Part shown: piece by piece, positions 71-39,597 of the stretch
How the letters are laid out: every line of letters begins with the position of its first letter
How positions within the stretch are numbered: position 1 is the stretch's first letter
IMG/VR virus record: IMGVR_UViG_2778261033_000015
Length of the DNA: 39,669 nt
Source of the DNA: a virus
Lineage: Duplodnaviria > Heunggongvirae > Uroviricota > Caudoviricetes
Reading direction: 5' to 3' (one strand)
Notes under the pieces: generated by a model
The model's input: the letters and a program-made list of their open reading frames with translations, nothing else
What the model was told of the DNA's origin: nothing
The model's database searches: none
Translations under genes and position numbers: made by a program

Positions 71-301
71 ATGGCTGTGCTTCGTACGTTACCGGGCAGA
101 ATCAAAACTCTGAACACCCGGCGGATAAATGTCCTGAGGGGGGAACAGCGTCGTGTCAGTGGCAGTGCCCGGGTTTCCCTCAAACGTCGTATCTGGCGGA
201 GGGATGCCGGACACTGTTGTCTCTGTAGACGCGTGGTTGACCTTTGTGACAGTGAACTCGATCACCGCATTGCACTTCAGTTCGGTGGTGGTAATGAGGA
301 G
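71..301 (+). pseudogene. HNH endonuclease gene, 5' fragment, disrupted by prophage insertion
   Basis: ORF reads ...HCCLCRRVVDLCDSELDHRIALQFGGGNEE up to 301 (C-x2-C, DH, GG of an HNH motif); the rest of the motif (TNLWTLCTECHRQK) resumes in frame at 39598. The ORF tail 302..412 is phage end sequence. Start at 71 not verified. Confidence 0.6.
297..301. repeat. Target-site duplication, left copy (AGGAG)
   Basis: AGGAG at 297-301 and 39593-39597 is the only 5-mer shared by the two junctions; deleting the element plus one copy restores the HNH reading frame. Confidence 0.55.
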
Positions 302-384
302 TATAGCGCGGCGATTTTTTTGATACCGATTTGCATTTCATTTGATACCGCTGAAAAACGCCGATACGCAACTTATTTGATACT
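302..384. repeat. Right-end (attR-side) subterminal repeats, candidate transposase binding sites
   Basis: Three direct copies of TTTGATAC(C/T) at 319-327, 341-349, 376-384; the same motif occurs three times in inverted orientation at the other end (39422-39576). Confidence 0.5.
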
Positions 385-429
385 AAATCGGCGCTTTTCT
401 TTTGAGTTTTAGAATGAGTTTTTAAGCGC

Positions 430-1167
430 TCATTCACTCTCTTTCAAACCAGTTTTAACTGTTTGTGGTTTTGGGTAAGGCTGGACTTTGAATAGCTTTG
501 TGTTGAGGCGTTTTCTGGCCCTCTTGTTCAGAAACCGGATGTAACGAAACTGTCGGAACTTATGCACACTGGCTCTGTCGATATTAGCCCTCAGATGTTC
601 ACCTCGTTGTCCGCCTCGTTTAATGGCATTCCTGCAAATCTCGTGATACCACTCGCCATCAAGTTCATAGAATGTTGATTCATGGCTGCCTACATAATCA
701 AAATTGCTTGCCTGATACACGACACCAAGACAGCCACAACGCTCATCTGCAAACGACTGAACCCACTGTACCTGCGGATAAAGCTGCCTGATTAGCTTGA
801 GCGCGTAACTGATTGCCCTTGATTCGGAGTTTCTCGGCATACAGTCATGCATCCATAGCCGGTTAAGCTCCATATATTCTCGGTTCTGCGTACCCGTTAC
901 GACGCGTGCACCACTGTTTGGGTTAAGGGCGTAACCCCATTGCATTACGCCAACAAGTTCCCGTTCTGAAAATATACCCAGATGAAGGTAGGAATTATTT
1001 ACGAAACGGTGGCTGTAATGTTTATTGACGATAACCAGTCTGGCCAGCCAGCAACTTATTGTCTCAACCCGCAACTCACGGGAGCCATAACCAACGATAT
1101 TGTCGTTATAGCGAATAAGTTCAGGCGTGCTGATGATACGGGATGTGACTTGCTTTCTGTTCCCCAC
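430..1167 (-). CDS. mom: DNA modification protein Mom
   Basis: 245-aa ORF with the Mom-like ...NKHYSHR... segment; last gene before the phage end; its start overlaps the stop of the upstream com-like ORF as in Mu. Confidence 0.8.
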
Positions 1168-1321
1168 GACAGGATTTCCTTGTGTATGTGGGGTGCTCTG
1201 TGGCGCTCGGAGATGTGATTTGATTGAGGGTTTTACTGCGCGGACATTTTACTTCCAGATAACTGAAACTGGCCCGTGCCAGTAGCTTATTGCAGTGTCG
1301 GCACCGTATGTTTCGATACAT
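1121..1321 (-). CDS. com: Com, zinc-finger translational activator of mom
   Basis: ...[29 protein letters not shown]... resembles Mu Com (IRCKNCNKLL...EIRCPRCK); overlaps mom start. Start set at internal Met (1321); the ORF extends to 1366. Confidence 0.75.
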
Positions 1322-1359
1322 GACCGCATAACCTCCTGCTTTGTTGTTGATGCCTTTCT

Positions 1360-1395
1360 CATGCAATCGATCGACAAAAACGATCGATTCGATTT
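1360..1395 (-). promoter_or_regulatory. Candidate Dam-methylation-sensitive regulatory region upstream of com/mom
   Basis: Palindromic ATCGATCGACAAAAACGATCGAT with two GATC sites (1369-1372, 1382-1385), 13 bp apart, about 50 bp upstream of com; Mu has a GATC cluster in the equivalent place. Confidence 0.45.
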
Positions 1396-1594
1396 GTTTA
1401 ATTGATACAACAAATAGATTGAAAAGTCATCAACAATGATTCAGGGAGGTGATTATTTACTTAAAGAAAACGAAGAGTTAGGTGGTGAAAACGATCATAA
1501 AATGATCATTTTATTGACTTTTTATACAGTGAAGGTAGGATCACGCGTATATGTAGTATGTTTCAAATCAACAGGATACTACATAAAAGTGAAA

Positions 1595-1620
1595 CCCAGC
1601 ATAGCTGGAACTATGCTGGG
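1595..1620 (-). terminator. Candidate intrinsic terminator (minus strand) insulating com/mom from upstream transcription
   Basis: Perfect 10-bp stem CCCAGCATAG/CTATGCTGGG with 6-nt loop; on the minus strand it is followed by TTTCACTTTTAT. Confidence 0.3.
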
Positions 1621-1742
1621 TCAATCTGTAAAAACTTGCATCAATGCTTTACTTCGAGCTCGTGGCGTATCCTATGATATTCCCCGGTCTCCTGTAAAGC
1701 AGAGATGCATAAAAAGGAGATCTTTATCATGGATGAAAGAGC

Positions 1743-38319: not shown

Positions 38320-38320
38320 A

Positions 38321-38569
38321 TCATGACGCCTTTCTCATATAGCTCTTAACCTGGTATCGACTGGGCCAGATTTCTTCAGGCGATACCCCAAGAGCATCAG
38401 CAATTATTTGCTGATACGGTCGGCAAGGAGTACGTAATACGCTTTTCAGCGAATCCCTGCTGTAACCAGCCTTTAAAGATAAAGAGCGCAGTGATAAGCC
38501 AGCCATGTGTAAGCGCGCCTTGATGATTTCAGGCGGCCAATCGTGATCTGAAACTTCTCTTCTACTCAT
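38321..38569 (-). CDS. ner: Ner-like DNA-binding regulator
   Basis: 82 aa; ...LSLRSLSLKAGYSRDSLKSVL...QQIIADALGVSPEEIWPSRYQ parallels Mu Ner (...QIIANALETKPEVIWPSRYQ); RBS GAGGAAG. Confidence 0.8.
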   Translation of the reverse strand: MSRREVSDHDWPPEIIKARLHMAGLSLRSLSLKAGYSRDSLKSVLRTPCRPYQQIIADALGVSPEEIWPSRYQVKSYMRKAS

Positions 38570-38589
38570 ACTTCCTCTATTCTAAAAAG

Positions 38590-38629
38590 TTACCCGCGCG
38601 GATATTCGTGCGGATATCTGTACGGGTAA
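38590..38629. promoter_or_regulatory. Candidate operator between ner and c
   Basis: Inverted repeat TTACCCG-N26-CGGGTAA enclosing two direct copies of GCGGATAT, 21 bp upstream of the ner start. Confidence 0.4.
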
Positions 38630-38736
38630 ATAATAGAACAAACAAAAGAACCAAATCAAGGTATTTTGTTCTTTTTATTCTTTGCGGTGTTTTTGTTATT
38701 AATATCAATAAGATAAATACAAAGGAACCTGAGAGC

Positions 38737-39321
38737 ATGAACATGAAAAACAGTTCTTTTCTCGACGAAGGAAAAGAACCAGTGATCGAACGGATTTTTC
38801 GTCTTGCAGAGCGTTACAAATCGAGAAGTGAGGCGGCTAGAGCATGGGGAATAAACGTTCAGACATTGCAGAACTACTACAAAAGGAGAAACAATCAGCC
38901 GCCACCACAACCAAGAAAGCACCATCTCCAGAACATTGCAGAAAGAGAACATGTATCTATGGAGTGGCTAGTCAATGGTTATGGTGATGAGCCAAGCATG
39001 AAAAAAGAACCAATTGAACAAACAAAAAGAACAAAAAAACAAAGAATTGATGATAGTGATTCCATCATCATGAGGGCGTGGGACTCGCTAACTTCATCTG
39101 AACAAGAGATTTTGTCCAACTTATTGATCAGAAAAGGGGCCGAACTACTAACCGTTTTGCTTGATACAGATATTCAAAAACTGCACTCATTGAGCGGAGT
39201 CAAAAGAGCACTAGCATTGAGTCTACAAGAGTTACCCGATGATACTGTAAGAGAGATTTATGAAGAATGTGAAGCTAAGGTTAATCATTTAAATGTAACC
39301 CAGAAAAAGGCTGGTGCGTAA
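38737..39321 (+). CDS. c: Prophage repressor (c-like) with HTH
   Basis: Divergent from ner/A/B and adjacent to the left end, as Mu c; HTH-like SRSEAARAWGINVQTLQNYYKRR...MEWLVNGYG. Start set at ATG 38737 (RBS AAAGGA); the ORF is open from 38608. Confidence 0.65.
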   Translation: MNMKNSSFLDEGKEPVIERIFRLAERYKSRSEAARAWGINVQTLQNYYKRRNNQPPPQPRKHHLQNIAEREHVSMEWLVNGYGDEPSMKKEPIEQTKRTKKQRIDDSDSIIMRAWDSLTSSEQEILSNLLIRKGAELLTVLLDTDIQKLHSLSGVKRALALSLQELPDDTVREIYEECEAKVNHLNVTQKKAGA

Positions 39322-39421
39322 GGGAGTGGTGCAATTTTTGTGCTGTAGTACACTCCTTTAAAGACAATCTGGAGAAAAACGTTTTAAGCCTTTTTAAAGC
39401 CATTTTAAGCGTCAATCCGTA

Positions 39422-39592
39422 GTATCAAAAGTTTTGCCGATTTTAGAATAAACGATTAATTATTGCACAATCGGTATCAAATAGACTTTAAGCGCTCATC
39501 CAGACATCACCTGTTTTATTTCAGTATCTTACAGGTGATTTCACCTCCTTTCACTAAAACCCTCGTTGGTATCAAATGATTCACCTGGTTAC
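39422..39592. repeat. Left-end (attL-side) subterminal repeats
   Basis: GTATCAAA (reverse complement of TTTGATAC) at 39422-39429, 39474-39481, 39569-39576, interleaved with CACCTG / CAGGTGA motifs at 39507-39512, 39532-39538, 39541-39546 and 39583-39588. Confidence 0.5.
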
Positions 39593-39597
39593 AGGAG
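39593..39597. repeat. Target-site duplication, right copy (AGGAG)
   Basis: See left copy at 297-301. Confidence 0.55.

Follow-up and report, generated by a model that had tools for sequence, protein, structure and literature searches.

Each end of bacteriophage Mu carries three repeats of the transposase-binding site, widely spaced on the left and close together on the right. The length of target DNA duplicated on insertion varies among transposable phages, being 5 bp for Mu, 6 bp for B3 and 6 bp for the transposable prophages of Leptospira (PMC8705779); a D3112-like phage shows a 5-bp shift. In Escherichia coli O157:H7 Sakai, DNA of the Mu-like prophage Sp18 has been reported as packaged, not circularized (PMC2669165). 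Mu-like phages occupy strain-specific sites, and Sp18 is about 96.5% identical to another O157 Mu-like prophage (PMC7430833). In 13 closed CC119 STEC genomes, 6 of 10 Mu-like phages lay inside mobile elements, several of them in Stx phages, and the STEC Mu-like phages are termed Sp18-like in the literature (PMC10132054).

The window studied here, meaning the whole 39,669-nt stretch of DNA that was analyzed, comes from E. coli O157 strain AR-0430. We hold it very probable that an Sp18-family phage integrated by DDE transposition at codon 77/78 of an HNH gene in the lambdoid prophage at ompW of this strain. Neither the Sp18 identity of the element nor the membership of the disrupted gene in another prophage was part of the original prediction for this locus.

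The interrupted HNH gene

AGGAG occurs at both junctions (297-301 and 39593-39597). With the insert and one copy of the repeat taken out, the open reading frame at 71..301 continues in frame into 39598..39669 (...DHRIALQFGGGNEE|TNLWTLCTECHRQK...), and the rejoined flanks, with one repeat copy kept, form a 373-nt sequence that matches intact genes annotated as 'HNH endonuclease' from end to end at 100% identity. The original prediction had put a prophage inside an HNH endonuclease gene at this point and had proposed looking for the uninterrupted gene in related genomes. The gene is indeed intact in about 290 E. coli records, with 100% identity across the junction, bearing out the placement. For the whole 373 nt, 294 E. 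coli records match at 99% identity or above, 1,255 cover at least 80% of the query, and lambdoid and Stx phages match at 99.5-99.7%. The rejoined product is 101 aa long, matches Pfam HNH (PF01844, E=3.6e-6, 27.5 bits against a curated cut-off of 21.4 bits) and contains an HNH motif with [CxxC]2, in which CCLC and CTEC flank DH…N…H. The two pieces in the window are:

71..301, + strand: HNH N-terminal fragment, codons 1-77 (translation; 100% identity to intact genes; RefSeq 'HNH endonuclease'; Pfam on the rejoined protein)
39598..39669, continuing past the window edge, + strand: HNH C-terminal fragment, beginning TNLWTLCTECHRQK (translation; RefSeq pseudogene)

Of the HNH motif, the first fragment retains the DH together with the first CxxC, and the second retains the other CxxC and the last His, so that the insertion splits the two predicted CxxC zinc ligands and the predicted catalytic His residues between them. 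The frame opening at 71 now runs into the phage end and stops at 412, giving a 113-aa chimeric ORF, and RefSeq enters the C-terminal piece as a pseudogene, 'HNH endonuclease, missing N-terminus'. In the ompW prophage, ynfO precedes the gene, and the small and then the large terminase genes follow it directly (RefSeq annotation). HNH genes adjoining cos and terminase genes are a recognized class (HK97 gp74 type; PMC3592412), which the disrupted gene resembles in its [CxxC]2 and in its position immediately upstream of the terminases. The recipient prophage carries paa and no stx. It may already have been defective before the insertion, because RefSeq flags its portal gene as frameshifted.

Both junctions are found together in 1 of 5,426 complete genomes (NZ_CP044140.1). 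An insertion seen in a single genome, and in an assembly that shows homopolymer errors when set against the window, could in principle be an assembly chimera at the junctions, or could join two unrelated HNH-like pseudogenes in place of one split gene. We regard this as extremely improbable given that both flanks run on into one lambdoid prophage (to ynfO and the lysis genes in one direction, to the terminases in the other), that once rejoined they match the intact gene without a difference, and that the 4-bp duplication described below is typical of the Sp18 family and lies at its exact conserved termini. Between the window and the RefSeq record of this locus there are three homopolymer indels and a difference of one 6-bp repeat unit; judged by these, some assembly noise does exist at the locus, but it lies away from the junctions.

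Gene content of the insert

As the original prediction had stated, the prophage is complete and Mu-like; its gene content (Pfam, RefSeq annotation) is that of a transposable phage, and it belongs to the known Sp18 family. From the mom end inward, the features are:

430..1167, - strand: mom (Pfam Mom E=5.8e-77; annotation)
1121..1321, - strand: com (annotation), a DNA-modification module together with mom (430..1321)
1436..4588, unstranded: cargo region between gin and com (Pfam; 78-81% nt identity to Stx phages)
1436..1900, + strand: unknown cargo ORF
1939..2184, - strand: DUF826 cargo (Pfam)
2220..2402, - strand: DUF1378 cargo (Pfam)
2549..4588, - strand: SASA/DUF6645 sialate O-acetylesterase-like protein (Pfam)
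4688..5248, - strand: Gin-like serine invertase (Pfam Resolvase and HTH_7; annotation)
5311-5492 and 6514-6695, unstranded: 182-nt inverted arms of the invertible tail-fiber segment, 4688..6695 with the gin region (inverted repeat)
6309..17142, - strand: tail and baseplate genes, including tail fiber, baseplate J/V/gp46 and DNA circularization protein (ORFs; RefSeq names)
12331..14406, - strand: tape measure (RefSeq names)
15024..15389, - strand: tube (RefSeq names)
15398..16900, - strand: sheath (RefSeq names)
17143..26544, - strand: head and packaging genes (ORFs; RefSeq names)
18552..19499, - strand: major head gpT-like protein (RefSeq names)
19499..20623, - strand: protease (RefSeq names)
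20800..21273, - strand: gpG-like protein (RefSeq names)
21395..22726, - strand: gpF-like protein (RefSeq names)
22710..24299, - strand: DUF935 protein (RefSeq names), which we take to be the portal by analogy with Mu gp29
24299..25963, - strand: candidate terminase large subunit, by position only (RefSeq: hypothetical)
25963..26544, - strand: gp27-like protein (RefSeq names)
27360..29022, - strand: lysis cassette (Rz1/Rz-like genes, lysozyme) and Mor-family activator (annotation; Pfam)
28025..28525, - strand: lysozyme (annotation)
28597..29022, - strand: Mor-family middle/late activator (Pfam Mor E=2.8e-32)
29092..35228, - strand: semi-essential early region (Pfam; annotation)
29092..29601, - strand: gp16-like protein (Pfam/annotation)
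32165..32698, - strand: Gp11-like protein (Pfam Gp11_C)
33342..33872, - strand: Gam (Pfam Phage_Mu_Gam)
35225..36157, - strand: MuB-like AAA+ transposition and target-capture protein (Pfam Phage-MuB_C and AAA_22; 48% identity to Mu B)
36229..38319, - strand: DDE transposase, 696 aa (Pfam Mu-transpos_C, 63.8 bits, and HTH_Tnp_Mu_1, 26.9 bits, both above cut-off)
38321..39321, unstranded: immunity region (Ner-like gene and divergent repressor-like gene)
38321..38569, - strand: Ner-like HTH protein (Pfam HTH_35)
38737..39321, + strand: putative repressor-like gene (position and divergent orientation as in Mu c/ner; Pfam HTH match below cut-off)

The transposase is of the MuA type, with the HTH_Tnp_Mu_1 and Mu C-terminal domains, and the MuB-type AAA+ gene adjoins it. 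It aligns with MuA over its full length at 22% identity (E=6e-11), and in a PDB sequence search its core around D..E matches retroviral integrase structures better than MuA. The Gin-like invertase is the sole recombinase in the element, and there is no tyrosine or serine integrase for integration. Site-specific integration was rejected as a mode of entry, the element being found at many unrelated sites. PADLOC and Pfam scans of the unannotated early ORFs and of the ORF at 1436..1900 gave no match to defence systems.

The overall plan is shared with Mu (NC_000929): repressor/ner/A/B, gam, mor, lysis, head, contractile tail, gin segment and com/mom, together with near-random insertion sites. Unlike Mu, the element has extra cargo (esterase, DUF1378, DUF826) near mom.

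Element boundaries and the length of the target duplication

When four whole copies from other sites are aligned with the window, the match spans 302 to 39593, or starts at 301 where the flank happens to end in G. These copies differ from the window by 1 to 5 mismatches and by repeat-number indels over 39.3 kb; the copy of strain 97-3250 differs by 1 SNP. The element is 39,292 bp long, 5'-TATAGCG…GGTTACA-3', and its phage map runs from right to left in the window:

302..39593, - strand: complete Sp18-family Mu-like transposable prophage, 39,292 bp (BLAST blocks against other copies; gene content)
298..301, unstranded: left copy of the target-site duplication GGAG (4 bp in 14/14 tabulated insertions and 4 further pairs)
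39594..39597, unstranded: right copy of the target-site duplication GGAG (14-insertion table)

We tabulated fully 14 independent insertions of the Sp18 family, in an epimerase gene, creC, a terB-like gene, agaF, hofQ, phnM, an MFS gene, irp1, cah, a DUF4224 gene, two Stx phages, sorM of Sakai and the HNH gene of the window. The duplication is 4 bp in all 14, and in four additional pairs from IMG/VR contigs as well (18/18 insertions in total). Depositors of two relatives annotated 4-bp 'duplication due to insertion of Mu_JNE…' features at the same ends (LC727881.1 and LC727895.1). Near-identical copies sit in more than 14 different genes. The short duplication and the intact empty site agree with the original prediction that the phage entered by transposition and split, and so inactivated, the gene.

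The original prediction read all five bases of AGGAG as target duplication and the termini as 5'-TATAGCG…GGTTAC-3'. The repeat is real, as is the precedent of Mu, which itself duplicates 5 bp (PMC8705779). The base preceding the right-hand copy of the duplication, however, is A in 14/14 insertions, always following …GGTTAC, whereas the base preceding the left-hand copy is A in only 2/14, about the chance rate. Since the A is invariant on the right and at chance level on the left, A39593 is part of the element. On this comparison, AGGAG opens with the element's own last base, which agrees with the target by chance. With the fifth base differing between the two sides in 12 of the 14 insertions, and with the depositors' own marking of 4 bp, we reject a Mu-type 5-bp duplication as very unlikely. 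The alternative boundaries tried (a start at 303, an end at 39592, or a 5-nt stagger with one target-derived terminal base) were rejected: T302 and A39593 are invariant and the adjacent target bases are variable.

In phage orientation the termini are thus TG…TA. The terminal A at the transposase end is conserved in every independent copy, and the TA at the mom end is shared without exception by all copies and by Klebsiella phage Kp4866-3. The original prediction had suggested that either the ends differ from the TG…CA of Mu or the boundary was misplaced by 1-2 bp; each half of this applies to one end. On the right the boundary was off by a single base, whose inclusion gives a canonical …CA-3', and on the left 5'-TA… in place of TG is truly non-canonical. 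By the 5-bp duplication and 5'-TG…CA-3' termini of Mu/D108-type phages, the element falls outside Mu sensu stricto.

A more elaborate scheme would keep a Mu-like 5-nt stagger: one end is cut one base inside, and the non-transferred strand serves to replace the lost terminal T/A, leaving an apparent 4-bp duplication. This would bring a MuA-superfamily enzyme into line with the canonical stagger, and the mom end does lack the canonical CA. But the resulting mismatch would segregate, leaving about half of insertions with 5 bp and no terminal base, and replicative transposition would be unable to restore that base; T…A with 4 bp is instead kept in 18/18 insertions. We judge this scheme very unlikely.

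Repeats at the element ends

The two ends of the 302..39593 element carry a shared motif:

302..384, + strand: mom-proximal end (attR-like), beginning 5'-TA (motif map)
39421..39593, - strand: transposase-proximal end (attL-like), ending …TTACA-3', or 5'-TGTAACC read inward (motif map; conserved terminal A)

Three direct TTTGATAC(C/T) repeats lie at the mom end (319-327, 341-349, 376-384) and three at the transposase end (39568-39576, 39473-39481, 39421-39429), all oriented inward; they are putative transposase-binding sites, laid out as in Mu. The window contains 8 occurrences of TTTGATAC(C/T) against 1.0 expected, a count reached in 0 of 100 shuffles. The first TTTGATACC lies at nt 18-26 from both termini only with the boundaries 302..39593, which this symmetry favors; under a 5-bp duplication the first motif would sit at unequal distances from the termini, 18 nt at one and 17 nt at the other.

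Relation to described elements

Sakai Sp18 (PMC2669165, PMC7430833) shares with the element the termini TGTAACCAGG…CGCCGCGCTATA, equal over the stretches read, the three-plus-three TTTGATAC end motifs, a 4-bp duplication (TAAA in sorM) and the gene order, including the invertible tail-fiber region and com/mom. It differs in its site, sorM as against a prophage HNH gene, and the window copy, unlike Sakai Sp18, is a near-clonal variant common to many STEC strains. Mu_JNE082796 and Mu_JNE122137 (LC727881.1, LC727895.1; PMC10132054) are Sp18-like elements inside Stx2c/Stx1a phages of CC119 STEC, and are likewise within lambdoid prophages, with the same ends and the annotated 4-bp duplication. Their transposase is 98.4% identical to that of the window and their late region about 89% identical at the nt level, and the recipient prophages and target genes differ. 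The transposable prophages of Leptospira (PMC8705779) are a precedent for active elements with TA termini departing from TG…CA; in those prophages each end is TA, the duplication is 6 bp and the transposases are B3-like, whereas the element has TA at the mom end only and a 4-bp duplication.

Proposed mechanism of insertion

We propose that the 696-aa transposase would bind the three TTTGATAC(C/T) sites at each end and that the MuB-like ATPase would deliver the target DNA. The terminal A residue of either end (…CA-3' on the transposase side, …TA-3' on the mom side) would then use its 3'-OH to attack target phosphates staggered by 4 nt, and gap repair or replication would yield the 4-bp duplication, here GGAG. 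This proposed chemistry is extrapolated from MuA, to which the transposase is only 22% identical, and the 4-bp stagger (5 bp in Mu) and the TA terminus (TG…TA as against TG…CA) depart from Mu.

Implications for the Sp18 family and its recipients

The insertion event itself is ordinary and of a known kind: Sp18-like phages are common in STEC, mobile, and reported inside other prophages. What may be new is its geometry. Tentatively, and as a possibility a little short of probable, we suggest that the Sp18 clade represents an undescribed mechanistic variant of Mu-type transposition, with a 4-nt stagger (against 5 in Mu and D3112-like phages and 6 in B3 and the Leptospira prophages) and asymmetric TG…TA termini. 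The sequence facts behind the 4 bp and the TG…TA termini are solid; whether they are truly unreported is uncertain, GenBank depositors having already marked 4 bp. A literature search turned up no paper on a 4-bp duplication or TG/TA termini in Mu-like phages, only the 5-bp and 6-bp values given above. When IMG/VR was scanned for the two end patterns, only Sp18-like pairs were gained; among contigs of 57-79% relatives none contained both ends, and the loose A-end pattern gave mostly chance matches. In relatives whose transposases are 75-79% identical (Yersinia phage vB_YpM_5 type), both termini are possibly TA; the Yersinia record is a circularly assembled virion genome, and its termini are guessed from motif spacing only.

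For the recipient, 39 kb now separate the lambdoid lysis genes from the terminase genes, and the prophage should therefore lose cos cleavage and packaging. The insertion probably disables DNA packaging of the ompW prophage, a small example of one prophage immobilizing another. For the family, the annotation rules can be corrected to ends TATAGCG…GGTTACA, a 4-bp duplication and TG…TA termini. A related lead is a MuA-superfamily enzyme that would work naturally with a 4-nt stagger and a TA terminus; if true, the Sp18 clade would offer natural material on how transpososome geometry sets duplication length and on how dispensable the 'invariant' CA is.

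Structure and novelty of the interrupted HNH gene

The original prediction placed a complete Mu-like prophage inside an HNH endonuclease gene, and comparison with intact alleles bore this out. An ORF from 71 reads …DHRIALQFGGGNEE as far as 301, and frame 2 beyond 39597 translates as TNLWTLCTECHRQK…; removing the insert together with one copy of the AGGAG found at 297-301 and again at 39593-39597 leaves one unbroken ORF with a Pfam HNH hit (PF01844, 27.5 bits; cut-off 21.4 bits). Many E. coli O157:H7 genomes carry an intact gene, annotated "HNH endonuclease", to which the rejoined 373 nt are identical (100%, full length), and the search for an uninterrupted gene that the prediction had proposed thus gave alleles identical across the junction. 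With this query, 294 records reach ≥99% identity and 1,255 cover ≥80% of its length, and lambdoid and Stx phage records are 99.5-99.7% identical to it. Both junctions occur together in only 1 of 5,426 complete E. coli genomes, that of O157 AR-0430:

NZ_CP044140.1 4891852-4931523, minus strand: insertion locus, the only genome with both junctions

RefSeq already annotates two HNH pieces there, flanking a "Mu transposase C-terminal domain-containing protein". The event looks recent because the HNH fragments equal the intact alleles without other change and the insert has barely diverged from other copies. The observation of a split gene is confirmed, the interpretation originally placed on it is partly supported, and the event is an ordinary one.

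Ends and target duplication

To define the ends, we compared four whole copies, the paired ends of a further six genomes, two records of Stx phages, and the Mu-like Sakai prophage Sp18 (E. coli O157:H7). The block conserved across independent insertions is 302..39593, 5'-TATAGCGCGG…CCTGGTTACA-3', and the target duplication is 4 bp in all 14 insertions:

First seven: GGAG, CAAC, CATA, TGCG, ATCG, CGAG, AGGA
Other seven: GTAC, GTAA, ATCA, ATCA, GATG, CTCT, TTTA
298-301 and 39594-39597: GGAG duplication in the window, following the 4-bp pattern of the other insertions

The predicted 5-bp AGGAG duplication is therefore replaced by GGAG, the fifth matching base being the element's own terminal A: an A precedes the right-hand copy of the duplication in all 14 insertions and the left-hand copy in 2 of 14, near the chance value of 1 in 4. 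At the other end, the target base following the duplication is T in only 2 of 14, so T302 is part of the element. Four more end pairs from IMG/VR contigs agree (AGAA, TGCC, AACA, ATCA), the first TTTGATACC motif lies at nt 18-26 from both termini only with the 302..39593 boundaries, and the depositors of LC727881.1 and LC727895.1 annotate identical ends, with a 4-bp "duplication due to insertion". Read in phage orientation, the element has the termini 5'-TG…TA-3'. Of the two alternatives originally offered for the non-canonical termini, different ends holds for the mom (left) end, which is truly TA, and a slightly misplaced boundary holds for the transposase (right) end, which is canonical once the conserved block is followed to 39593.

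The window contains 8 copies of the motif TTTGATAC, where 1.0 would be expected (none of 100 shuffled sequences reached 8), and six of the eight copies lie ≤175 bp from the ends, all pointing inward:

18, 113 and 165 nt from the terminus: TTTGATAC at the transposase end
18, 40 and 75 nt from the terminus: TTTGATAC at the mom end

This layout resembles that of Mu, with its spaced L1-L3 and clustered R1-R3 sites. Two more exact copies lie far from the ends (36173-36180 and 19081-19088), one of them within the short gap that separates the transposase gene from B; these may be chance occurrences or an internal transposase site. Judged from sequence, the transposase would bind the putative TTTGATAC sites and pair the element ends, the MuB-like protein would supply target DNA, both terminal 3'-OH groups would attack target phosphates 4 nt apart, and repair or replication would leave the 4-bp duplication.

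Gene content of the insert

The insert is a full Mu-type genome, as predicted, and each window ORF matches intact copies. The 696-aa transposase matches Pfam Mu-transpos_C and HTH_Tnp_Mu_1, the adjacent ATPase matches Phage-MuB_C and AAA, and further Pfam matches are to a Ner-like HTH, Gam, Mor, a Gin-like invertase and Mom. RefSeq annotation adds Mu-type head genes (DUF935 protein, gpF-like, protease, gpT-like major head), lysis genes, a contractile tail and baseplate, and an invertible tail-fibre region:

5311-5492 and 6514-6695: inverted arms of the invertible tail-fibre region
1436-1900, plus (opposite) strand: 154-aa ORF between DUF826 and com, hypothetical in every copy

The 154-aa ORF had no match in Pfam or PADLOC. 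The window differs from NZ_CP044140.1 only by single bases in C7, T6 and T8 runs (16517, 33684, 36219) and one VNTR unit. The RefSeq "frameshifted" gam and sheath stem from single-base homopolymer differences absent from the window. Both genes are in frame in the window and in every other copy, which makes the frameshifts probable assembly errors.

A perfect hexanucleotide repeat, (CGGCTT) x 9.8 at 18172-18230 within ORF 18116..18508 (minus), encodes a (Glu-Ala)n run in an HI1506-related/FluMu_N-domain head-region protein. Relative to the window it has one more unit in RefSeq AR-0430, three more in SMN013SH2 and one fewer in SRCC 1675 and 2013C-3252, in prophage copies that are otherwise near-identical. 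Between gin and com/mom (1939-4588) lies a lambdoid-type cargo block encoding a 679-aa SASA/DUF6645 sialate-O-acetylesterase-like protein, DUF1378 and DUF826. Over ~2560-4240, the esterase gene has 78-81% nt identity to the yjhS region of some Stx phage records, annotated there as 9-O-acetyl-N-acetylneuraminic acid deacetylase.

Relationship to Sp18, Mu and more distant phages

Many E. coli genomes contain the element ends (≥99% identity) at sites unrelated to one another, including phnM, yfcC, meaB, ypdA, irp1, creC, agaF, cah and hofQ. Aligned with the window, whole copies from four other strains show 1 to 5 mismatches and some repeat-number indels over 39.3 kb (1 SNP in strain 97-3250), and Sakai Sp18 has the same terminal sequences. 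In PA20, JNEC-KY176, 2014C-3011 and SMN197SH3 the best left- and right-end matches (H54/H106, H100/H138, H64/H140 and H66/H144, respectively) are megabases apart or oppositely oriented, an arrangement that implies several copies per genome or inter-copy rearrangements. Published work describes Sp18 as an intact prophage that is packaged and does not circularise (PMC2669165), O157 Mu-like prophages occupy strain-specific sites (PMC7430833), and in 13 closed CC119 STEC genomes 6 of 10 Mu-like phages lie inside mobile elements, with a Mu-like phage present in several Stx phages (PMC10132054). Since the element is of the Sp18 family and the phenomenon is in print, the finding is already known.

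The B protein shares 48% identity with Mu B. The transposase shares only 22% with MuA. In a PDB chain sequence search the transposase (36229-38319, minus) matched retroviral integrase catalytic cores (RSV/ASV IN, E ~1e-4, residues 363-426) and did not retrieve MuA. The matching stretch is the core that surrounds the second Asp and the Glu, which are ~39 residues apart; in MuA these are D336 and E392. The element probably works like Mu yet departs from it in two Mu-specific features: its duplication is not 5 bp long and its termini are not TG…CA. Reported values are 5 bp for Mu and 6 bp for B3 and Leptospira prophages (PMC8705779), with a 5-bp shift for a D3112-like phage (PMC5977238); TA-TA ends were termed "unusual" and known in Leptospira only (PMC8705779). 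Our literature search returned no paper on Mu-like phages that gives a duplication of 4 bp or TG/TA ends; these features, which we found only in the GenBank annotation of LC727881.1 and LC727895.1, are the one modestly novel thread.

Klebsiella phage Kp4866-3 (transposase 57% identical) shares the TG…TA pattern: its record (OK490420.1) runs AT|TGTTACTAGGG… (L024:1-30) to …CGCGCGCTATA|AGA (L025:360-391), and the few flanking bases are compatible with, without proving, a 4-bp AGAT duplication. In relatives with 77-79% identical transposases, a conserved TAT(A/G)(A/G)AGAGG begins 17 nt before the first TTTGATAC:

L213:2800-2825, L216:2804-2829 and L023:1434-1458 (Yersinia phage vB_YpM_5): stretches with the conserved sequence in the relatives

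The mom-side end of vB_YpM_5 would finish …GCGCTTTA. These three sequences and the motif spacing suggest TA at both termini in vB_YpM_5-type relatives, which would resemble the Leptospira TA-TA prophages.

Probable consequences for the recipient prophage

HNH genes adjoining cos and terminase form a recognised class (PMC3592412). In NZ_CP044140.1 the HNH gene has a ylcI/ynfO-family gene on one side and the small and large terminase genes on the other, within a lambdoid prophage integrated beside ompW (L001 and L026, 4886800-4962000) that carries paa, hokD, dicB and tRNA-Arg/Ile. Annotation from the methyltransferase/tRNA region through the esterase gene contains no stx. This prophage has a DUF6645 gene of its own. 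RefSeq also marks frameshifts in its portal, cro-like and exonuclease genes, and these too may be assembly noise. Kala et al. (PNAS 2014) reportedly found the HNH protein gp74 of HK97 to be required for cos cleavage. The insertion parts the first CxxC and DH from the second CxxC and last His, and 39 kb now interrupts the late operon; because of both, the recipient prophage is very probably unable to package its DNA.
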